Numbered from the stretch's first letter, positions 2,876-20,103 are shown. The stretch: DNA of 20,103 nucleotides from Methylococcales bacterium (GCA_028714175.1 JAQTMV010000086.1:1-20103); one strand, 5' to 3'. Numbers and translations are program-made. Notes: generated by a model from the sequence alone, not told the origin.

Positions 2876-3134
2876 GTTGATGTCCTTGTAACTGAGTGAT
2901 TGGTTTTATCTCGCCTCAGCAGGCGCCACTATAAAGAACAGGGTCAGATTTCAGTTATATAACCTATTCAAGTCATAAAACCATCTGCTTTTAAATTGGG
3001 GAAGCAGGTATGGATTTTTAGCCTCAAGCTATCATCCCCAGCCTATACAGCAAGCATTAACTATTCGGGGCAATGATCGATTGGAATTCATTTGTGCTAA
3101 CGAAAATTATACGCGCTACCAGGAAATATTAACA

Positions 3135-3260
3135 ATGGTTGCCGCAAACACGGCTTTTACAGATGGGCTGGCAAGCGATTCGGTTGCTTATCCGTGGCCT
3201 GGTTATCATTCCAATGCCTTATTGAATGTCTGTTTATCCCATTTTAAAGGTCAGCTCTAG
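3135..3260 (+). CDS. Hypothetical small protein of 41 aa (MVAANTAFTDGLASDSVAYPWPGYHSNALLNVCLSHFKGQL).
   Basis: An ATG at 3135 is preceded by aggaaa 8 nt upstream. The TAG stop at 3258-3260 is followed 12 nt later by a strong hairpin terminator. The ORF is below the length cutoff of the ORF track. It has no recognisable domain, so coding status is unproven. Confidence 0.25.
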   Translation: MVAANTAFTDGLASDSVAYPWPGYHSNALLNVCLSHFKGQL

Positions 3261-3272
3261 TAAATTTTGGGC

Positions 3273-3300
3273 GGCCACTATGCATAGTGGCCGGTTTTTG
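3273..3300 (+). terminator. Rho-independent terminator-like hairpin.
   Basis: A perfect 20-nt palindrome ggccactatgcatagtggcc at 3273-3292 is followed by ggtttttg. Confidence 0.5.
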
Positions 3301-3361
3301 CCTGTCAGACCTTGTCGATACCAATGGCCGCTGTAATAATCGTTAGCTGCCATTCTCCACA

Positions 3362-4795
3362 TTGTTTTCAGGAAGTTCATCCTGCTGGAACCAGCCGAAA
3401 TATTATATTGCCAGTAATGGAAGCCTTGGCGCGAAAAGCGTAACGGATAAGCCTGGCGCACTGGAAAGCATCGCGCAGCTCATGCACAACTATGACATTA
3501 CGCCCGCCGAAGTCGAAGCCGCCTTTCATGCGCCTGCCGCTTCCCGGCCTGTGCCTGCTCGGCGCAGCAGCGGCGATATCGCCAAGACCCTCTTCACTTA
3601 TCTCGGCGCAATTTTAATTGTCTCGGGCATCAGTGCCTATATCGGTACATTCTGGGAGAGCATGGGCAGTGTGATGCGGATTTTTGTGACACTAGGCGTT
3701 GGCTATATTCTGACCATCGTGCTGATTTCAGCTCTGCATGAGAAAAAATATCCGAGGCTTATCCTGCCGTTTGCGCTAGCCTCCGTGTTCATGCTGACAG
3801 GTGGCTGGTTCGTGCTCATCCACGAGTTGTTCCCGCACGGCGACAACTGGCGTGCCGCAGTGCTCTTCGTTTTCGGTGTTATGGCCCTGCACCAAGGTGC
3901 GCTGCTCAGCAAATACGGGCTAACGGTGCTGGCATTTACGGCACTCTTTTTTGTTTATGGATTTTTGCAAGTGGGCTTCGATCTGCTCGGCGTCCCGATC
4001 GCTGTCATCGCCATTGTCCTTGGCTGCTCGCTATTCCTGGTCGCCACCGCATTAGAGAACACGTCTCACCGCATACTCGCAGAACCCGCTTTGTTGAACG
4101 GGACCTGCTGGCTGAACGGCGGCCTGTTCGACCGCATCGCCATTGCCATCTCCGCGAACTGGGCGAGTCTGCTCACTGGTGTGTGCGTGATGTCCGCTGC
4201 CTATGGGCTGCAGAAGGCGGGGCGGTATTCGCGCCTGACCGGTCTCGGCTTTTTTGTCGGATCGATCATGGCCTATGACGGCTTGTTTGACCTCGTGCGC
4301 AACACGCCCGCCGAACTCTTCTACCTCGCAGTAACGACATCGATGCTCTATGCCTGCGTGGTTCTACAAAGCTGGTCGCTGTTATTCACCACTGTCGTTG
4401 CCATGCTCGGTTTCATCGGGTTTTACACTGCGCAATATTTCGCAAATTCTTTGGGCTGGCCCATCTCGCTTCTCCTCATGGGTGTCGCTTTCCTGGGCGT
4501 CGGCACGATTGCCATGAAGGTAAGACGATACATCCATCTAGCTATTCCTGGAAAATTTAGCTACAGGGAAATTAATTCTAAACTCAGCCCCCGGCCTGAC
4601 ATTAATCACATCGATCTTTCCATTCATATTCATCGTCATCTGATGTGCCAACGCCAACCCTATTCCAGTGCCTACAGTTTCACGAGTAAGCTCGTTTTCG
4701 CTGCGGTAAAACAGTTTAAAAATTTTCTTCATCTGGTCTTTGGCAACGCCGGGTCCAAAATCACGGACTATAAATTGCACACAGCCGGTAGTTAA
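3362..4795 (+). CDS. Polytopic inner-membrane protein with about 10 predicted TM helices and a soluble N-terminal region of about 70 aa. The start is uncertain. The last 90-odd codons lie past a compositional junction and are probably not native.
   Basis: A long ORF begins with TTG at 3362 and has internal ATGs at 3482 and about 3650. It contains many hydrophobic helices, for example LFTYLGAILIVSGISAYIGTFW, IFVTLGVGYILTIVLISAL, LILPFALASVFMLTGGWFVLI and LLGVPIAVIAIVLGCSLFLVATAL. GC falls from about 60% to about 40% near 4520, and after that the ORF runs antisense through the 3' end of the histidine-kinase gene. Confidence 0.55.
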   Translation: MFSGSSSCWNQPKYYIASNGSLGAKSVTDKPGALESIAQLMHNYDITPAEVEAAFHAPAASRPVPARRSSGDIAKTLFTYLGAILIVSGISAYIGTFWESMGSVMRIFVTLGVGYILTIVLISALHEKKYPRLILPFALASVFMLTGGWFVLIHELFPHGDNWRAAVLFVFGVMALHQGALLSKYGLTVLAFTALFFVYGFLQVGFDLLGVPIAVIAIVLGCSLFLVATALENTSHRILAEPALLNGTCWLNGGLFDRIAIAISANWASLLTGVCVMSAAYGLQKAGRYSRLTGLGFFVGSIMAYDGLFDLVRNTPAELFYLAVTTSMLYACVVLQSWSLLFTTVVAMLGFIGFYTAQYFANSLGWPISLLLMGVAFLGVGTIAMKVRRYIHLAIPGKFSYREINSKLSPRPDINHIDLSIHIHRHLMCQRQPYSSAYSFTSKLVFAAVKQFKNFLHLVFGNAGSKITDYKLHTAGS

Positions 4796-6664
4796 TAAAT
4801 GGCAGCTTAGTTCAATCACTTTTTTATCTGCCCTAGCGGAAAATTTGATGGCATTATCGACCAGATTAATCATGATTTGAATCAACGAGTCGGGATTTAC
4901 CTTGATTTTGGCTTGAGCCGCCTCCTGATCACAGGACAATTTTAATTCAAACCCCGCCCGCATGATTTGGCTGGAAACTTTCGATTGAATGCCGTCCATC
5001 AATTCGGCAGCCGTCAGACATTTCAGATGAGGCGGTTTATCGTTGCGAGTCAATTTGGCAAGCTGCAGTACATTATTGATCAAACGTGTAAGACGTTCGC
5101 TTTCATCCAGGATAAAATCGTAATAGGATAGTTTCCTGCATTCATCGACCCAGCCTGCTTGAAGCATTTCGCCGTACATGCGGATCGAAGTGAGCGGGGT
5201 TTTCAATTCATGGCTGACCGCAGAAACAAAATCCTGCTGTTGATTGACCAGCTTTATTTGGCCGATGCCGAGCCGGTACAAAGCATAAAATCCGCCAAAA
5301 AATACGATGACCAGTACGATTGTCAACCAGATAATGACCCATCCTCCAGAACCGACAGGAAGCCGGGTTATGCTGAAAATAAGTTGTAATTCACTTAATG
5401 GATCAGACAACTGGGCTTGATAAAGCAACTCGCCGGTTAACTCTTTAGCGCTAGATAAATATCCACGCGGACTTCGACCGGTAAAAGCAGACAGTACATT
5501 GCCTTGAAAAACAACGAGCAAATCGCTCATTTGTGAAAGCGCGGTTTCCTGAAAAGCAGAATTGATATTTCCCTGTAGGAAAAAATCTTTTTCAATCAAT
5601 AAGCCCTGGATATAACGCTGACCATTCAGCCACACTTTACGAAACAGGACAAAGTGGCCACTGTCGAGTTGGCTGAATTCAAATGGATCAATGGCGCTTT
5701 CAAATGTGCGGATTCGCAAAGGTTTGGCATCAGACCTAATGGCAGACGTTGCCGGGAAGCTGCTTTCTTCCATTGCGTAGCCGGCTGTTTTTTTTGCTTT
5801 CCCGATTCCTTCGGGCAATATATTTTGTTCGGTTCGCGCTTTTTTTTGTAACTTGCCTGTTATGTTTTCCTTTGTTTCCGCCAGTTTTGGTTTGGTGGCT
5901 TCAACTTGAAATGATTGCCTTAATTCTACATCCTCCAATCGACCCAATTTGTTTTCCTGCTGGCTTTTCCCTGGAGCAATTTTATTGAGTTCGTCAAAAG
6001 CCGCCTGACCTTCGCTTGCGGGAGATGCAGCTGATTTTTCAAGCTTGCCTTTCAGGGTGCTTGCACCAGAGGAGACGGCATCTTTTTCCCTTTCGGCCAA
6101 ACCGCTATCCGGTTTATTAAGCGAATTACTGTGTACGTCCTTATCCTGTTTCCCAGAAATGGCGGTTTGAGTCCTCACCAAACGGTTTTTGTTCAATATC
6201 AGTTGTATCCGGTTCTGCAAGTCGATTCTTGCCGCCAGTTCTTGTTCAGTAATGCCGTAACTTCCGGCTTTTTCGTTGTCTTCCGGGATAAAAGGCGTTA
6301 CTAATTTACCTGCCGCATCCACCTGGAAATAACCGATTAAACCGGGTATTTCCGATTGAACAGGGTACTTGGAAAGCGGCGAACATTGTAAAAAGTTAGC
6401 GCTTGAAACACCCGCCACGTTTAAAAAGGAATAATCGGTGAACGCCCGTTGCTCTTCGATAGTAATCAGCCGAATCAAATGATTGTTGATGCGGTTGGTC
6501 AGTTCGTCCGCCATCAACTGATGCTGGTGAAAAGTTTCCCATTTCAACCGGCTATAGGATTGCTGAATCAATAGTGTAGTGGGTATCGCCAGGGTCAGGA
6601 ATAGTACTGTCAACCACCACCGGAGTGTGCTTTTATTCAGCCTTTCAAGATGATTGCGTTTCAT
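4538..6664 (-). CDS. Sensor histidine kinase (two TM segments, periplasmic sensor domain, HisKA and HATPase_c).
   Basis: TM1 is WWLTVLFLTLAIPTTLL and TM2 is GGWVIIWLTIVLVIVFFGGFYALY. The H-box is SAVSHELKTPLTSIRMYGEML, the N-box is LVDNAIKFS, G1 is VRDFGPGV and G2 is GTGIGLALAHQ. Its start overlaps the upstream response-regulator stop by 4 nt (ATGA). Confidence 0.9.
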   Translation of the reverse strand: MKRNHLERLNKSTLRWWLTVLFLTLAIPTTLLIQQSYSRLKWETFHQHQLMADELTNRINNHLIRLITIEEQRAFTDYSFLNVAGVSSANFLQCSPLSKYPVQSEIPGLIGYFQVDAAGKLVTPFIPEDNEKAGSYGITEQELAARIDLQNRIQLILNKNRLVRTQTAISGKQDKDVHSNSLNKPDSGLAEREKDAVSSGASTLKGKLEKSAASPASEGQAAFDELNKIAPGKSQQENKLGRLEDVELRQSFQVEATKPKLAETKENITGKLQKKARTEQNILPEGIGKAKKTAGYAMEESSFPATSAIRSDAKPLRIRTFESAIDPFEFSQLDSGHFVLFRKVWLNGQRYIQGLLIEKDFFLQGNINSAFQETALSQMSDLLVVFQGNVLSAFTGRSPRGYLSSAKELTGELLYQAQLSDPLSELQLIFSITRLPVGSGGWVIIWLTIVLVIVFFGGFYALYRLGIGQIKLVNQQQDFVSAVSHELKTPLTSIRMYGEMLQAGWVDECRKLSYYDFILDESERLTRLINNVLQLAKLTRNDKPPHLKCLTAAELMDGIQSKVSSQIMRAGFELKLSCDQEAAQAKIKVNPDSLIQIMINLVDNAIKFSARADKKVIELSCHLLTTGCVQFIVRDFGPGVAKDQMKKIFKLFYRSENELTRETVGTGIGLALAHQMTMNMNGKIDVINVRPGAEFRINFPVAKFSRNS

Positions 6665-7368
6665 CGCGATTGACCGAGCAACCGGTAACCGGCGCCACGC
6701 ACTGTAATCAGAAATTGAGGTTCGGCTGGATCAACTTCAATTTTACGGCGGAGTTTGGCGATGTGGATATCAACGGTACGGGTTTCTATGTCCAGATGCC
6801 TGGCATAGCCCCACACTTTATTTAACAATTCTTCGCGGGATACCGGGCGTTCCGTATTGCTTTGCAGGTACTGCAGAATCTCTATTTCACGCCGTGTGAA
6901 GGAAAAGTTTTCGGCCCCGTACCGCCCGGTGAGATTTTGGCAATCAATTGATAAATCATTGCCCAATTGTATCGTTTTATTTTGCGCTAACCCATTTCGG
7001 GTTCGACGTAAAACAGCCTGCACCCTGAGTACCAGTTGCGCCACCGAAAACGGCTTGGCGACATAATCATCCGCACCCAGCGATAACCCTTCAATAATAT
7101 CTTCATCACTGCTTTTTGCCGTCAGCATAATAATGGCATGATCATGAGCCTGCTCACGGATTCGATTACAAATTTCAAAACCGTTCATGCCCGGCAACAT
7201 GACATCCAGCAGAATCAAGTCGAATTTGCCGGTTAAAGCCCTATCCAAGCCTTCAACGCCATGCCCGGAAAAGTCGACCTCGTAGCCGTGATAGACGAAC
7301 ACATCGATCAGTCCGATACGGATAGCGGCTTCATCTTCAATAATCAGAATGCGTAATTTACGGGACAT
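6661..7368 (-). CDS. OmpR/PhoB-family response regulator (receiver domain plus winged-helix Trans_reg_C).
   Basis: Chosen start is MSRKLRILIIEDE (ATG at 7368). The ORF track extends it to a TTG at 7407. The receiver shows the conserved acidic pocket and LILLDVMLPGMNG, with the phosphoacceptor Asp in LLDVMLP. The C-terminal domain reads TVDIHIAKLRRKIE...VRGAGYRL. Confidence 0.9.
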   Translation of the reverse strand: MSRKLRILIIEDEAAIRIGLIDVFVYHGYEVDFSGHGVEGLDRALTGKFDLILLDVMLPGMNGFEICNRIREQAHDHAIIMLTAKSSDEDIIEGLSLGADDYVAKPFSVAQLVLRVQAVLRRTRNGLAQNKTIQLGNDLSIDCQNLTGRYGAENFSFTRREIEILQYLQSNTERPVSREELLNKVWGYARHLDIETRTVDIHIAKLRRKIEVDPAEPQFLITVRGAGYRLLGQSR

Positions 7369-7434
7369 GGCAACTAGTGGGCCGGATAGAAACGAATAGT
7401 TTAGCAAGAGGAAGACATTTTCCTGCTTTTCATA

Positions 7435-7451
7435 TGTAAATTGTTTGTAAA
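7435..7451. promoter_or_regulatory. Direct repeat TGTAAA-N5-TGTAAA (11-bp periodicity) in the intergenic region between the two-component operon and the divergent pspA-like operon. Candidate OmpR-family binding site.
   Basis: TGTAAA at 7435-7440 and again at 7446-7451. OmpR/PhoB regulators typically bind direct repeats with about 10-11 bp spacing (established knowledge). Binding is not shown. Confidence 0.3.
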
Positions 7452-14888: not shown

Positions 14889-15287
14889 TTAATTAATGTC
14901 CGACGACCACTTGATATCGTGAATCTCAGGATCAGATTCAAGAACTTTCTTTAACGCCTCAGCAGTATGACCAACCTTTGTCCTCGTATCCCATTTTTTA
15001 AGCCACCGCCTGATAAATGGCTTGGAGGGTTCAATAAAACATAATAATTCATCTGGCTCGCCATTTTGATGACCGCAGCCAATCCATAAAGGAAAGTCTT
15101 CATTTTCAAGTTCAACCATCCAGCCCCAATCTTCCCCACCGATACTGGTGACCTTAAGACCATAATGCGGAAGTTTTTCTTGAAGATACTCAGCCAGACG
15201 CTTACCCCAAAGACCCGGATTTATTGCCTCTTCCTCGCCATTGTATGGCGGAAATTTGTTTGATTTAAATTCGACCAGCGTTTTCAT
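14889..15287 (-). CDS. Hypothetical protein of about 132 aa with no recognised domain.
   Basis: The ORF reaches up to 15350 but would overlap the upstream SDR gene. The internal ATG at 15287 (MKTLVEFKSNKF...) avoids the overlap. GC is lower than in neighbouring genes. Confidence 0.45.
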   Translation of the reverse strand: MKTLVEFKSNKFPPYNGEEEAINPGLWGKRLAEYLQEKLPHYGLKVTSIGGEDWGWMVELENEDFPLWIGCGHQNGEPDELLCFIEPSKPFIRRWLKKWDTRTKVGHTAEALKKVLESDPEIHDIKWSSDIN

Positions 15288-15300
15288 ATCGCATTTTTCA

Positions 15301-16149
15301 TTACACGTAATTCCGATAGTTACCGATTGAGTAGTTTGCACATATCTCATACAGAGCGTTCACTGCTTGCCTGTCGCGGCTGTAAGTACAGTTGGCTTCG
15401 GTCCTATGTTCATAATATCGGCCTGTCTTTTGCTGTCCGATGGGATGAGTCGCAAGCCAAACCGGCGTTTCGGCTCCCTGATCCGGCGTTTCATGTCCAC
15501 CAAATCCCAAATTATTACTCAACTCTGAATTCACATCGCCAGGATGACAGGCATTGACAGCGATCTGATAGGGCTTTAATTTTTCGGCAAAGACTGAACT
15601 TAACATACGGTTGGCTTGTTTGGATTGTCGGTAAGCCAAGTCATTATCATAGCTTCGGCGAGTGAATTCCAAATCATTGAGATCCAGTCCTCCAGCCCAG
15701 TAGCTGGCTACATTAACAATACGCGCAGGCGCTGATGCTTTTAATATCTCCATGAATTCGTCGATTAACCAATAGTAGCCAAGAACATTAGTGGCAAACT
15801 GCATTTCAATGCCTTCAGGTGTTTCCTGTCGAGAGCGGGGTGTACAAGCTGCATTGTTGATCAAAACATGTAAAGGTCCTTGCCACCGTTGTGCCAAGTT
15901 GTGGATTTGTTCATATCGGCTTAAGTCGGCAAGCACATAGCCCACTTCGGAATTTCCGGTCAGAGACCTTATTTCATTGACCGCCAATACCGCTTTCTGT
16001 TGGTCGCGGCATACTAATACCACACTGGAATCTTGTAGGTTAGCCAATTGCCGGGCAATGGCCTTGCCTATCGCCCCGGTAGCACCGGTGACCAGGAAAA
16101 CTTTGGTGTGAGTATTTTGCCCACTTGAAGACTGTGCAGTGATTCCCAT
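15301..16149 (-). CDS. Short-chain dehydrogenase/reductase (SDR) family oxidoreductase.
   Basis: Rossmann motif VFLVTGATGAIGKAIA, NNAA motif, and catalytic YxxxK (YRQSK). Confidence 0.85.
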   Translation of the reverse strand: MGITAQSSSGQNTHTKVFLVTGATGAIGKAIARQLANLQDSSVVLVCRDQQKAVLAVNEIRSLTGNSEVGYVLADLSRYEQIHNLAQRWQGPLHVLINNAACTPRSRQETPEGIEMQFATNVLGYYWLIDEFMEILKASAPARIVNVASYWAGGLDLNDLEFTRRSYDNDLAYRQSKQANRMLSSVFAEKLKPYQIAVNACHPGDVNSELSNNLGFGGHETPDQGAETPVWLATHPIGQQKTGRYYEHRTEANCTYSRDRQAVNALYEICANYSIGNYRNYV

Positions 16150-16256
16150 CAGCTCAATGCTTTATAGCGATATTGAAAGGTATAGTTATATTCATGTTAA
16201 AAACATTACGTCTACTCTATACCGCTACCCATTACTCCACAAAATCATCATAACGG

Positions 16257-16496
16257 CTAGCCTTTCAAGGCGATGGTCTCAACCCGGTCAACTGTATCGA
16301 GAGTTATTTTGCCTTCCTGAGCTAACCAGCCAATGCTGCGCTGGATGATTTTTTCTTCTTCAGGAAGCTCCCGAATCAATTTGGCAACAGGGGTCGCATC
16401 ATTTTCAGCCAAGTAATGCCACACGTTTCCCGCAGTCAAACCCACGCGTTCAGGCATAGCTATTTCAGGCGCCGCTGCATTCGGTTGGGGAGCCAC
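16257..16496 (-). CDS. Small winged-helix protein, DUF2582-like.
   Basis: AGNVWHYLAENDATPVAKLIRELPEEEKIIQRSIGWLAQEGKI resembles the DUF2582 wHTH pattern. The ORF track start at 16496 is a GTG. An alternative ATG at 16457 gives MPERVGL. Confidence 0.55.
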   Translation of the reverse strand: MAPQPNAAAPEIAMPERVGLTAGNVWHYLAENDATPVAKLIRELPEEEKIIQRSIGWLAQEGKITLDTVDRVETIALKG

Positions 16497-16782
16497 GGCT
16501 TGAGCCTTTTTAGCGGGTTTCTGATCCGGGCTTGGTTTTGAAGGTAAGTAAACGCGGATAATAGGATAGACTCGACCAGATAAGGTTTCTATACGGTAGT
16601 TATTATAAATATCCGGTGTTGATGCATAAACATTTTCTGGTAAACCGGCGATTTAATGTTTAATAACGGAATCAATACCCTTTGAACTGGCCGTTGCTTT
16701 ATTTGGCTACTCAATAGCAGCATAAGATAAGCCGTATCCTGTCGCTAAATCTTGTGCCTGGAAAGGTTTTGCACTACCGCAA

Positions 16783-17739
16783 TCATGGCTTGATCTTAGC
16801 CGCAAAACGAATAATGTCGGGAAGCAATTGCAGATAGACAGCAAGCTTTCCTAAAACATCCACCGCATCACTTGGCGGTTTGATGACACGTATCCTCACA
16901 TGCTCAATGATTTCAAGTAACATTTTTTTGCCTCGAAATCGATTGATGCCAACTTCCAGCAAAGGCGCTAAAAAAGGCGCGATTATGAGCGTTGCCATTA
17001 ATCCGCTTGTCGCTCCAACCAAACCTACCCAAGAAGGAACTCCGGTTAGACTCACCCATAGACTGCCCCACCAGGATAAATTGCTTGTATAAATCGCTGT
17101 TGCAGCCGCTTGACCAGTAGCAATGCTACTTCCAAAGCCACTGGCTCCCAGACCTTTACCCATTAGGCCGGTCAATAAAAACATCAATGCTTCTCGTGAA
17201 CCTTCAACAGGAAGAGACATTCGTTCAATATGATGGGAGAGTTGTCTTTCAACTTCCTCACGCTGATTTGTTGGAAGTCCGTTAAGTAAATCACTCAATT
17301 TGGCATCGAAATTGGCTTGATACTGAGCGACATAGTCCTGAAGCTTTTTGTCCAAGCCGCGTAAATCAAGCAAATCGACTTCAATCGCGGTATACAATTC
17401 AAGTTGCTTACCCGATAAAGAAATAGAATTGAGTTGTTTATCCGGCTGATTTTTCTTAACGGTGGCTGCTGACTTGATAAACCCCCAGGCAGAACGAGGC
17501 AGGGTAGCTAACTCCTTGGGAATATCGCCTCGGTGTCGCCAATGGCGGCTTAAGACAACACTCGGCGAAGCAAAATACTTCAAATAGACTGGCGTGACAC
17601 GATTTTTTGCCTCGTTAAGGTGCGACTCAACGATGTCGTTTAAATTTTGCCGGTGTTGTTCAGTAGCTTGGGCGTAACCACAAGAAAAGCGCTGGTCCGG
17701 AAGCTTTGCTTGATCGTTTTTATTACCTGGCTGATACAT
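16783..17739 (-). CDS. Hypothetical 318-aa protein with a soluble N-terminal domain and a C-terminal glycine-zipper-like membrane region.
   Basis: A long clean ORF. The C-terminal part reads LLTGLMGKGLGASGFGSSIATGQAAATAIY...GLVGATSGLMATLIIAPFLAPLL (small-xxx-small repeats). No family was recognised. Confidence 0.6.
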   Translation of the reverse strand: MYQPGNKNDQAKLPDQRFSCGYAQATEQHRQNLNDIVESHLNEAKNRVTPVYLKYFASPSVVLSRHWRHRGDIPKELATLPRSAWGFIKSAATVKKNQPDKQLNSISLSGKQLELYTAIEVDLLDLRGLDKKLQDYVAQYQANFDAKLSDLLNGLPTNQREEVERQLSHHIERMSLPVEGSREALMFLLTGLMGKGLGASGFGSSIATGQAAATAIYTSNLSWWGSLWVSLTGVPSWVGLVGATSGLMATLIIAPFLAPLLEVGINRFRGKKMLLEIIEHVRIRVIKPPSDAVDVLGKLAVYLQLLPDIIRFAAKIKP

Positions 17740-18177
17740 TCAATTCAAATTTTTTCGGCTTGTCAAACAGTTGGGGAAATTTGCCCGTTTAAAAAAAAAT
17801 AGCATTACAGTTTATCCCTATCCTCAGCATCGGCTTCGTGCTTTTCCCCCTCGTCCTTTATGTATTTCCACATGCCGTTTTGATGCAGCCATATTGGATC
17901 AGCATTTTGTTGGATATACTCTTCAGCATCAATTCCTTCGATCATGGGCGGTCTTTTGATTCTTACCTGCTTTCCATTTAGGAATACCCATTGGTACTTC
18001 TTTTAATTTTCTTCTTTTGTCTTTTTTCTTACACGCTTCTGAGCAGTTGTAAGCTTCTTTTTTAACTTTGCCATAGTTCAATTTTATAATGCTGGTTTTA
18101 TCTGTTTCCCAGAGCCACAATATTTACTCTGTCATCGGTCACTTGCGTCCCTTGGGGTTGTTTTATGATTTCACTCA

Positions 18178-18937
18178 TCACAAGTCCTGAGCATGTTTGC
18201 TTACTAACTGCCATAATCCCAGCACACTAACTGCGACCAGGCCACCGCCAATCCAGCGTTTAAAAAGCAAATCATTGCGCATAATGGCGTCATGCGCTTT
18301 CAAACCCACTAGGTGTCCTATGGCAGCAATCGGTAAAAGCGCGAGTGCCGTTAGAAAATGCAAATCAACGGATAGAGCGATGAACGTCGTCATTTTGATG
18401 CTTACCAGAATGAACCATAATACAAATAAGGTGTCCCGCAATTTGTATTTGCTGACATTATGCATATAAACGGCGACCATCAGCGGTGCTCCGCTCAAGG
18501 AGATCCCGGCAATGTAACCTCCTAAAACGAGCAGGCCTCTATCCGCCCACACATGATGACTTTCAATACCTCGGTTGAATAGCCAGGTAAAACCATACAG
18601 CAAGGTAACCGAATAAATAAAGCTATTCAGCCATAAGACCGGTAGATTCACCAGTCCAAAAACGCCTATGATAGCGGGAGGAATAATGTAAATGGAAGAG
18701 TGCCGCAAATACTGCCAGTCGACATTATGCAAGCGGTTAAGCAGCGTTAAGCCGGAAAAAAATAGTAAATGCACCGCAATGATTGGCAACCATAAAAGCG
18801 GATTATTATGCACAAATAACATCAGCGGTAACCCTAATGCGGCGCCACCAAAACCTAGCCCCGTCCGAACAAAGCCGGTCCAAACAAACACCAGAGCAAT
18901 GGTCAGTATTTGATAAAGAGAAAAATCGGATAACATA
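18178..18937 (-). CDS. TauE/SafE (DUF81) family anion-exporter-like permease.
   Basis: GFVRTGLGFGGAALGLPLMLF is typical of the family, with about 7-8 TM helices. Start chosen at ATG 18937 (MLSDFSLYQ). The ORF track extends it to a TTG at 18963. Confidence 0.8.
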
Positions 18938-19239
18938 ATTTTAAAATATAAGCCATTTTTCAAAACAGCCGGCTATGATCCTCACCTAACGGCCAACTGT
19001 TGGTTGTAAGCGTCCGTAACAATCCGGAAGCTTACCGGATTAGCTCAATCATACCTCAGTTAGTTCAATCATAATTGACAATTATCCGGGAAATGCAATG
19101 AGACCAAAACTTAGACAAGCCATCATAAATGCCAATCCTGATTATTTTTTTGGGATAAAGCCCATCAAGAAAAGTACAGAAAAACTATTCCCAAAGAGGA
19201 ATATCAAATAATCCGAAATCATCTATTTATTTTGTAAAT

Positions 19240-19509
19240 GTGTCACAGGGCGAATTGGATCCGTGCATGACGATTATTGCTTCTGATCCCGAAGTAATGA
19301 AAGAAATACGTTTTAAATCAATCATTGCTGATTGTCGTCACTTTGAAAAAGATGCGGCTACTGTTTTGTGGAGAGCAGAAAACGAACAAGCCCTACTTAA
19401 ATCCTTTATACAAAAAGAGTTTGATGACATTATGGCTAATTTCGATACCAAAATTGTTAAATTAAAAAAGAAAAACAAAGTCGTTATTTGCAATGGCGTT
19501 GTTATTTAA
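19240..19509 (+). CDS. Hypothetical small protein in the AT-rich region. Weak call.
   Basis: An ORF of 89 aa with a GTG start (ATG alternative at 19267) and no recognisable motif. It lies in about 38% GC DNA with nearby ORF-free sequence. Confidence 0.3.
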   Translation: MSQGELDPCMTIIASDPEVMKEIRFKSIIADCRHFEKDAATVLWRAENEQALLKSFIQKEFDDIMANFDTKIVKLKKKNKVVICNGVVI

Positions 19510-20103
19510 TCAACTTCCTCGCACTCATACAGTGCATATCTATAGAAACGCGAAGAAACGGAATTAATCGTTTTGATATTTATTGATTCTGAAAATTCAG
19601 ACACCGAAAATCCACAAAGCAGTCATTCGCAACTATTCAATACTGGGATGGCTGACAGCCTATACCCGACCCATTTGAGACATTCGGATATGGATTTAAG
19701 CTTCCTGATACCGGTCATTGGCAAAGTAGCAGTATCGACCCACTAGAGTCACTCAATCCAAATTTCCGAATGGCAGCATACTCACACTGATAGCGACCAG
19801 TCAATTCTAGCGTGCTAAGTGTATTATAGGTATTTATACGTATTGTTTTTTTAGCTTGAAGTGTTACAGTTTTTTAAGAGTTGAAAAGGTTCATTTTTTA
19901 CTATGAATGGCCGGTGGCAGTTCTGTTGATCATCGTACCAATAGTTTAAGTGTGGCTTTTATTAACAGTGTTGAAGAGCAGAAACTAACGCAGTCTTATG
20001 CGCTCTGTGCTCCTTAATACCTCCGGGCAACACACAGTAATCGCGACGTAAGCTCTGAAAACGGGGCGATTTAATATGTGTTTACGCAGCCTGGTAAAGT
20101 CCA

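Follow-up and report, generated by a model that had tools for sequence, protein, structure and literature searches.

The stretch of DNA analyzed here, referred to below as the window, covers 20,103 nucleotides of a Methylococcales bacterium (GCA_028714175.1 JAQTMV010000086.1:1-20103). It carries on its plus strand an open reading frame (ORF) of 477 codons, at 3362-4795, in which homologue alignments distinguish parts of different origin. Positions 3424-4534 are the remnant of a DUF2157 membrane-protein gene, comprising codons 27-397 of a 397-residue form, with a guanine-plus-cytosine content (GC) of 0.560 and a GC at third codon positions (GC3) of 0.68. Positions 4535-4795 are a read-through tail of 86 codons and a stop (261 nt), antisense to the 3' end of a sensor histidine kinase gene located on the minus strand at 4538-6664. 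As argued below, this arrangement very probably results from the insertion of Gallionellaceae DNA at the 3' side of the kinase gene, followed by three small lesions and by neutral decay.

The kinase (708 residues), whose stop codon occupies 4538-4540, is encoded by a native gene with an intact C-terminus, as judged by domain scan and synteny. It is the last gene of a conserved cluster, the rest of which lies at 6661-9886: the genes for a VWA protein, a 198-residue protein of unknown function and PspA are divergent from those of an OmpR-type response regulator and of the kinase itself. The order of these five genes is kept in Methyloglobulus morosus (kinase 77% identical at the amino acid level), Methylomicrobium, other Methylococcales, Methylophaga, Leucothrix, Cocleimonas, Thiolinea and others, and the synteny of the kinase thus extends across the Methylococcales and to the Thiotrichales. 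This broad distribution rules out the cluster as the foreign part of the window. The closest genome is L005 (loci used for comparison are designated by such numbers), a metagenome-assembled genome (MAG) of an uncultured gammaproteobacterium, with a kinase 92% identical and RtcB and RtcR 98% identical. Because the cluster is syntenic in Methylococcales and L005 is the closest genome, the host is a Methylococcales methanotroph, a gammaproteobacterium with a GC of about 46%. Beyond position 4538, the kinase cluster is accompanied in the window by the genes for an SPFH protein, two tRNA-like genes, RtcB, RtcR and others. As a separate observation, the divergent association of the PspA and VWA genes with a two-component system, kept in order throughout the lineages listed above, may represent an uncharacterized envelope-stress module.

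The composition of the window was examined with a 300-nt sliding GC profile and with a likelihood change-point search. GC is 0.613 at 1-2875, 0.429 at 2876-3423, 0.560 at 3424-4534 and 0.457 at 4538-20103, and the sliding profile shows three high-GC/low-GC alternations in the left of the window. A previous interpretation of this DNA, referred to below as the sequence-only reading, had noticed an abrupt drop in GC near 4520. This step is real, with a maximum-likelihood change point at 4507-4513 (log-likelihood gain 19.9); further change points are placed at 3418 and 2822. The same reading described a left side uniformly at 58-62% GC and a right side at 35-45%. Both values have to be revised, the left side being made of the three unlike segments given above and the right side varying at about 43-50%. 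The GC of the segment 3424-4534 (1111 nt) is 3.65 standard deviations above that of host windows of 1111 nt, for which the maximum is 0.515. Its tetranucleotide correlation reaches 0.28 with the host part and 0.77 with Sideroxydans DNA; host windows correlate with the host at 0.77 on average and never below 0.655. The GC3 of the remnant lies between those of eight host genes (0.44-0.56) and those of the donors (0.76-0.87). In GC, GC3 and tetranucleotides, this segment is therefore outside the gene-to-gene variation of the host and resembles foreign DNA.

The assignment of the encoded protein to DUF2157 is based on homology. The window ORF scores 30.9 bits against Pfam PF09925, slightly below the cut-off of 32.4, and shares 76-95% identity with more than 100 proteins having precomputed PF09925 hits and named DUF2157 in their source. 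Homologues at 76-86% identity number in the hundreds, and among the 120 best matches listed, the named ones belong mostly to Gallionella and Sideroxydans. The DUF2157 gene of Sideroxydans lithotrophicus ES-1, like that of three other contigs, is the second of a pair and overlaps by 4 nt a partner gene encoding 200-204 residues. Genes for a cNMP-binding protein, a DUF6629 protein and an ABC ATPase recur in the neighborhood of this pair (L040, L042, L043 and L045), and the gene is native and syntenic in these Gallionellaceae. The 397-residue DUF2157 protein of ES-1 (P0095, CP001965) is 78% identical to that of the window over 370 residues; the hydrophobic segments align without gaps and the C-terminal pattern KVRRQL corresponds to KVRRYI in the window. 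The window copy differs from it by the absence of residues 1-26, of the partner gene and of an in-frame stop at the end of the family.

Among Methylococcales, DUF2157 adjoins the kinase only in the closest relatives of the window. It is absent next to the orthologous kinase in L006-L012, L024, L031 and L037, which include Methyloglobulus, Methylomicrobium and other Methylococcales. The synonymous distance is 0.30 between the window and L043, a Gallionellaceae locus, and 0.49 between L040 and L043. Because these distances place the window copy inside the diversity of the Gallionellaceae, and because the gene is patchy in Methylococcales, the transfer would have proceeded from the former to the latter. 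The DUF2157 gene thus appears to have been acquired horizontally by the Methylococcales host from iron-oxidizing Gallionellaceae. The interpretation of the GC step as the edge of horizontally acquired DNA, already put forward from the sequence, is supported by the 76-86% identity with Gallionella and Sideroxydans proteins, by the donor-like composition and by the absence of the gene in other Methylococcales. A native gene of unusual composition is ruled out by the phylogenetic distribution of DUF2157. A literature search retrieved no paper mentioning DUF2157 together with Gallionella, and PADLOC gave no match for the DUF2157 protein, its partner or the STAND-type protein encoded at the start of the window (see below).

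The right edge of the foreign segment can be resolved to a few nucleotides. The sequence-only reading had set the boundary at 4520, about 20 nt past the stop of the kinase gene, and had attributed to the junction a truncation or fusion of the membrane-protein gene at its 3' end. The homology boundary lies instead at 4534-4538, at most 3 nt from the kinase stop. Moreover, the window protein aligns with eight homologues to its final residues …GTIAMKVRRYI, where all the others stop. Because it matches its homologues to the last residue, the 3' end of DUF2157 is not truncated. In L002, L003 and L004, which come from other samples and whose kinases are 91-98% identical to that of the window, the same adjacency is observed and the gene stops normally, the DUF2157 and kinase calls overlapping by 4 nt. 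The junction DNA reads …CGATACATCTAGCT… in these three loci and …CGATACATCCATCTAGCT… in the window and in L001. The difference is a 4-nt tandem duplication on the plus strand, CATC|CATC (4531-4534 and 4535-4538), absent from L002, L003 and L004. The duplicated form reads CATCCATCTAG and the unduplicated one CATCTAG.

As indicated by the alignment and by the gene calls in relatives, the tetranucleotide CTAG (4538-4541) holds the overlapping stops of both converging genes: CTA at 4538-4540 is the TAG of the kinase read on the minus strand, and TAG at 4539-4541 is the ancestral stop of DUF2157, now in the +1 frame. As a consequence of the duplication, this TAG is out of frame and the ORF runs for 86 more codons to 4795, which accounts for the extension of about 270 nt, antisense to the kinase, that had been noticed initially. 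The coding sequence of the kinase is unchanged by the duplication and its C-terminus is conserved across relatives. Comparison with related genomes, suggested as a way to refute the initial proposal, thus gives a divided answer: the contiguous arrangement is the same in the relatives, but the ORF ends differently, at a normal stop. The other possibility envisaged, a C-terminal tail genuinely belonging to the family, is not borne out, the tail being found in no homologue. The duplication would have arisen by replication slippage. It resembles known cases of stop loss by short tandem duplication, in which a short unit is doubled, here 4 nt just before the stop, with a +1 shift and read-through. 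It differs from them in that the ancestral stop overlapped that of a converging gene, the extension is wholly antisense and the kinase is unaltered.

It could be objected that the duplication is a sequencing or assembly error and that the gene truly ends at TAG as in L002-L004. Indeed, it is restricted to one lineage, and L001, with 99.97% identity to the window across 6743 nt, may represent the same population or even the same reads. The duplication is nevertheless present in both assemblies, which differ at 2 positions, and the repeat is no homopolymer. The substitutions on the window branch (10 nonsynonymous and 2 synonymous, several at invariant residues, see below) also fit a gene that is no longer maintained. 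An error of this kind seems distinctly unlikely.

The adjacency of DUF2157 and kinase is not restricted to the loci with overlapping stops. L001-L005 and L047, obtained from different samples and diverged (kinase 91-98% identical), all have it. In L005 and L047, 36 nt separate the two stops. This spacer (CCTGCATTTACAGTATTTTTTTGAGA…) is homologous to the 3' flank of the kinase in Methyloglobulus L007 and in L008, and is therefore host DNA. It follows that the DNA of the donor extends to the DUF2157 stop, give or take a few bases. In comparison with L005, the window clade has lost exactly 40 nt between two TAGC repeats, a loss that bears the signature of a microhomology deletion and was presumably produced in this way. 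The same set of loci bears on the possibility of an assembly chimera, in which Gallionellaceae and Methylococcales sequences would have been joined by an assembler at about 4530. The source is probably a metagenome and the two parts come from different bacterial classes, in keeping with such an artifact. The junction is found, however, in at least six contigs or MAGs obtained from different samples with different assemblers and diverged on both sides (the window, L001-L004 and L005/L047), and the GC3 of the segment lies between donor and host values. The occurrence of the junction in at least six diverged contigs from different samples leaves a chimera extremely improbable.

The left edge of the remnant has a different nature. 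Full-length DUF2157 homologues start with MIWLL…, the first 26 residues being followed by LGAKSV. Upstream of CCTTGGCGCG, the sequences of the window and of L002 part from those of L004, L005 and the Gallionellaceae locus L043; the 5' break is accordingly placed at 3423|3424, and the alignments with these three loci identify it as a deletion junction. About 857 nt of L005 (14132..13278) are lacking in the window at this point: about 40 nt of flank, about 140 nt of donor upstream DNA, the 199-residue partner gene and codons 1-26 of DUF2157, which encode its first transmembrane helix. An imperfect TGGAA microhomology is present at both deletion ends. The adjacent sequence, at 3288-3423 (GC 0.456), is shared with L005, L047 and L048. 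This flank of 135 nt is 93% identical to L005 14269-14133, 96% identical to L047 and 90% identical to L048, and has no homology to Gallionellaceae DNA. Between the Methylococcales copies and Gallionellaceae, homology begins about 140 nt before the ATG of the partner gene. On the basis of this limit, the original insert was about 1.9 kb long, 3288-3423 is the old recipient-side left flank, and the original left junction has been deleted. The second boundary of the foreign DNA, first thought to lie outside the window, is thus replaced inside it by a secondary deletion junction, at which the insert remnant ends.

The three indels are read directly from these alignments, and their distribution among the relatives suggests the following order. 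In an ancestor shared with L005, a piece of Gallionellaceae DNA of about 1.9 kb would have landed just downstream of the native histidine kinase gene, bringing about 140 nt of upstream sequence, the gene of 200 codons and the 397-codon DUF2157 gene up to its stop; the GC step near 4520-4538 would be the right edge of this insert. A 40-nt deletion between the TAGC repeats would then have removed the host spacer and brought the two stops into overlap (CTAG), the state seen in L004, L002 and L003. A second deletion of about 857 nt, shared by L002, L003 and the window, would have taken away the partner gene and 26 codons of DUF2157 and created the GC step at 3423|3424. Finally, slippage of 4 nt (CATC CATC) in the window lineage would have shifted the TAG and added the 86 antisense codons. 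According to this order, the ORF was presumably already disabled by the 5' deletion before the recent loss of its stop.

The substitutions accumulated in the remnant are consistent with such a loss of function. Between the window and L002, whose DUF2157 proteins are 95% identical, the ratio of nonsynonymous to synonymous rates (dN/dS, or omega) is 1.08, with 19 nonsynonymous (N) and 6 synonymous (S) changes. The ratio is 0.17-0.31 in comparisons involving full-length DUF2157 copies, and 0.28 for the kinases of the window and L002. When the changes are polarized with outgroups, 10 N and 2 S fall on the window branch and 4 N and 2 S on the L002 branch. The resulting 14 N and 4 S since the 5' deletion have a probability of 0.0005 under an omega of 0.2 and are compatible with an omega of 1 (830 N and 280 S sites). 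Unlike the proteins of Gallionellaceae, the window copy is substituted at several positions invariant in all other aligned homologues, for example I>N in PALLIGT and S>D in AYSGLFD. The changes go from GC to AT in 10 cases and from AT to GC in 3, and this bias, like the intermediate GC3, fits a drift towards the composition of the host. Loss of parts (codons 1-26, the partner gene and the stop) is thus accompanied by relaxed selection, as far as small counts can tell. Because the changes since the 5' deletion have occurred at a neutral rate, the remnant is a pseudogene in the making. It is best read as a non-functional sequence that is decaying towards host composition.

The alternative is that the shortened and extended ORF is still a working gene, with a start at ATG 3482 and a tail that is tolerated or newly useful. 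In favor of this possibility, 437 uninterrupted codons run from this ATG, which is the start chosen by gene callers in L002; a sigma-70-like site is present at 3312-3340; and the protein has kept the high identity to the L002 copy mentioned above. Several observations point the other way: the ORF lacks the first transmembrane helix and has lost its translationally coupled partner gene, the substitution ratio fits an omega of 1 and rejects an omega of 0.2, and the tail, without counterpart in any homologue, is merely the antisense of the kinase. With the N-terminus and the partner lost and a neutral substitution ratio, a functional fusion protein is quite unlikely.

Whether the insertion and decay proposed above derive from a single acquisition was considered separately. 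In a neighbor-joining tree, the window and L005 copies belong to one clade of 12 that holds all the copies in a Methylococcales context, and one acquisition is favored on this ground. Several observations weigh against so simple a scheme, or against parts of it. The tree has no support values. L048, with a DUF2157 92% identical to that of the window, and L046 carry the two-gene module without any kinase gene within 527 and 870 nt, respectively. These right-hand stretches (L048 6044-6571 and L046 2166-3036) have in common a different flank of about 95 nt, and the left flank of L046 is also different, being the end of a CobB-like gene. A tblastx search of the L046 and L048 right flank against all loci returned nothing relevant, the only matches being short ones between the upstream part of L048 and L005. 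The two loci without kinase imply that the history is not simply that of one insertion followed by decay. In addition, the window is separated from L005 by a synonymous distance of 0.37 in DUF2157 and 0.19 in the kinase, the former value not being below the 0.30 measured between the window and L043. This excess could reflect separate acquisitions or gene replacement, or a faster change during compositional adjustment. As for the decay itself, the substitution counts are small, with a Fisher test against the kinase giving only P = 0.06, and the 4-nt duplication is read from two assemblies.

It is therefore possible that the two-gene unit moved or was acquired more than once, by repeated transfer or exchange between strains. 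Carried further, this idea would make the unit of about 1.9 kb (the 200-residue protein and DUF2157) a discrete cassette moving without a recombinase of its own. Its passage from Gallionellaceae (Betaproteobacteria) to Methylococcales (Gammaproteobacteria), its sharp ends, its at least four left and three right contexts among Methylococcales strains, its position in a hotspot beside the conserved PspA/VWA and two-component cluster, and a hairpin that may mark the exchange point (described below) could be understood in this way, but the proposal is unlikely. A classical integron cassette is not what is observed: the DNA after the DUF2157 stop in L005 and L047 is the host kinase flank, and no IntI-like gene was found in any locus (attC sites were not sought with a dedicated model). 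If the cassette idea were true, 4534-4538 would be a recurrent recombination end and no one-off scar, and the highly conserved Gallionellaceae pair might serve a selectable function at oxic-anoxic interfaces rich in iron and methane.

The region to the left of the recipient flank has a history of its own. A STAND-type NTPase gene (GC 0.613) extends on the minus strand from 2875 to beyond the start of the window (<1-2875). According to Pfam and NCBIfam, it encodes a DUF4062 domain, an NB-ARC-like P-loop, DUF7779 and nine TPR units of 42 residues. These near-identical units are encoded by a tandem array at 1-1070 (126 nt x 8.5, 91% matches). The protein reaches 303.4 bits against NCBIfam FxSxx_TPR, for a cut-off of 300; no partner of the FxSxx-COOH system is present in the window. 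Of the loci compared, only the window, L001 and L002 carry this gene. The STAND protein is 92.5% identical between the window and L002, and the kinase 98.4%. Its other homologues are scattered in Nitrosomonas, Nitrospira, Accumulibacter, Zoogloea, Variovorax and others, and are not found in Gallionellaceae. The STAND gene is a separate, lineage-specific acquisition, outside the DUF2157 insert.

Between this gene and the recipient flank, an AT-rich spacer (2876-3287, GC 0.42) is specific to the window/L002 lineage, matching only L001 and L002 (89.6%) among the loci compared. It probably carries the promoter region of the STAND gene, a -10/-35-like site being present on the minus strand at 3135-3106. 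The spacer runs into a perfect palindrome of 11+11 nt on the plus strand, CGGCCACTATG/CATAGTGGCCG, at 3272-3293, the sole inverted repeat found; it is followed by GTTTTTG and looks like a terminator. As a side observation, L002 contains at about 2160-2230 an extra unit of 36 nt with a second, different palindrome, GGCCGCTATGGATAG/CTATCCATAGCGGCC, which suggests that these units are a small hairpin element, similar to repetitive extragenic palindromic sequences, of variable copy number.

Four lineages are homologous to the right of a single base and unrelated to the left of it: position 3288 in the window, 14269 in L005, 265 in L047 and 3938 in L048. In the window, this base falls in the right arm of the palindrome. 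The cargo to its left is the STAND NTPase in the window, RND efflux genes in L005, Endonuclease_NS and PIN/MazE genes in L048, and no recognized gene in L047. The pattern suggests a variable hotspot in which DNA was acquired several times independently, rather than one island, and the shared base may be a recombination hotspot. Integration hotspots between core genes offer a parallel, in that the content downstream of the conserved kinase cluster differs in every relative and the four lineages part at one identical base on the left side of their common 135-bp flank, with differing cargo beyond it. The present case departs from them in that only the kinase-side flank is conserved, and no recombinase or att site was found in the DNA examined. 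An independent observation concerns L005, where the DNA downstream of the DUF2157 pair (14444-22124) is at 53-59% GC over at least 8 kb and encodes RND components (AcrB split in two ORFs, HlyD, OEP) and ExbB/ExbD. It is perhaps another foreign block in this MAG, and the split of AcrB may be due to a frameshift or to long-read errors.

These data bear directly on the sequence-only reading, in which positions 1 to about 4520 formed one large island, with a far boundary beyond the window, whose insertion or edge deletion truncated or fused the membrane-protein gene. The GC step at 4507-4538 is real and both STAND and DUF2157 have a higher GC than the host, as that scheme requires. The two genes are separated, however, by a spacer at 43% GC, and differ in distribution and in relatives, STAND being confined to the window, L001 and L002 while other cargo occupies L005 and L048. 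The insert has its other edge at 3423|3424, and the DUF2157 gene is complete to its last codon, with a normal stop in relatives sharing the junction. A single island is accordingly very unlikely. No integrase or transposase domain was detected in the window ORFs scanned, Rfam gave no matches in the alternative flanks of L046, L047 and L048, and no direct repeats were found at the ends of the insert, which are the stop codon on the right and a point about 140 nt upstream of the partner gene on the left. With the tRNA-like genes of the window 7 kb away, this is not a classical integrative island, as far as the DNA within the window shows. An empty site was also looked for in related genomes. DUF2157 is indeed absent there, but no clean empty site or target-site duplication could be recognized, the DNA downstream differing everywhere; among ten Methylococcales loci, no gene downstream of the orthologous kinase is shared by any two.

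The tRNA-like genes deserve a brief description in their own right. They lie in tandem at 11438-11584 on the minus strand, directly downstream of rtcB (11736-12959, minus strand), and Rfam scores them as tRNA, at 62 and 54 bits. The anticodon loop is abnormal in both, ARAGORN giving 'anticodons' of 2 bases and one of the two folding with a 4-nt loop. A matching pair is located downstream of rtcB in L005 (5081-5230). Possibly, these genes encode tRNA mimics connected with the RtcB/RtcR RNA-repair operon.

In the classical model, foreign DNA drifts towards the composition of its host (amelioration) and decays when it is not under selection (pseudogenization). The insertion and stepwise decay of DUF2157 described here conform to it in most respects. 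The segment in the window has atypical GC, GC3 and tetranucleotides, a sharp edge and donor-like relatives; it is patchy in the recipient order, with an intermediate GC3 and AT-biased changes; and it has lost its 5' end and its stop, with a dN/dS of about 1. It differs from the model in that no integrase, tRNA gene, insertion sequence or direct repeats mark the insert, which is moreover very small (about 1.9 kb and two genes) and has its right end within a few bases of a stop codon. This is ordinary, well documented genome decay, and current understanding is unchanged by it. For annotation, the 477-codon ORF at 3362-4795 should not be described as encoding a membrane protein with a new C-terminal domain. 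It would be a foreign gene deleted at its 5' end which, having lost its stop, continues antisense to the kinase. The locus would nevertheless provide a cleanly dated example of the decay of a small insert, sister lineages having kept the stages of the insertion and of the 40-nt, 857-nt and 4-nt events. It would also record a gene flow from iron-oxidizing Gallionellaceae to methanotrophs of a shared habitat.

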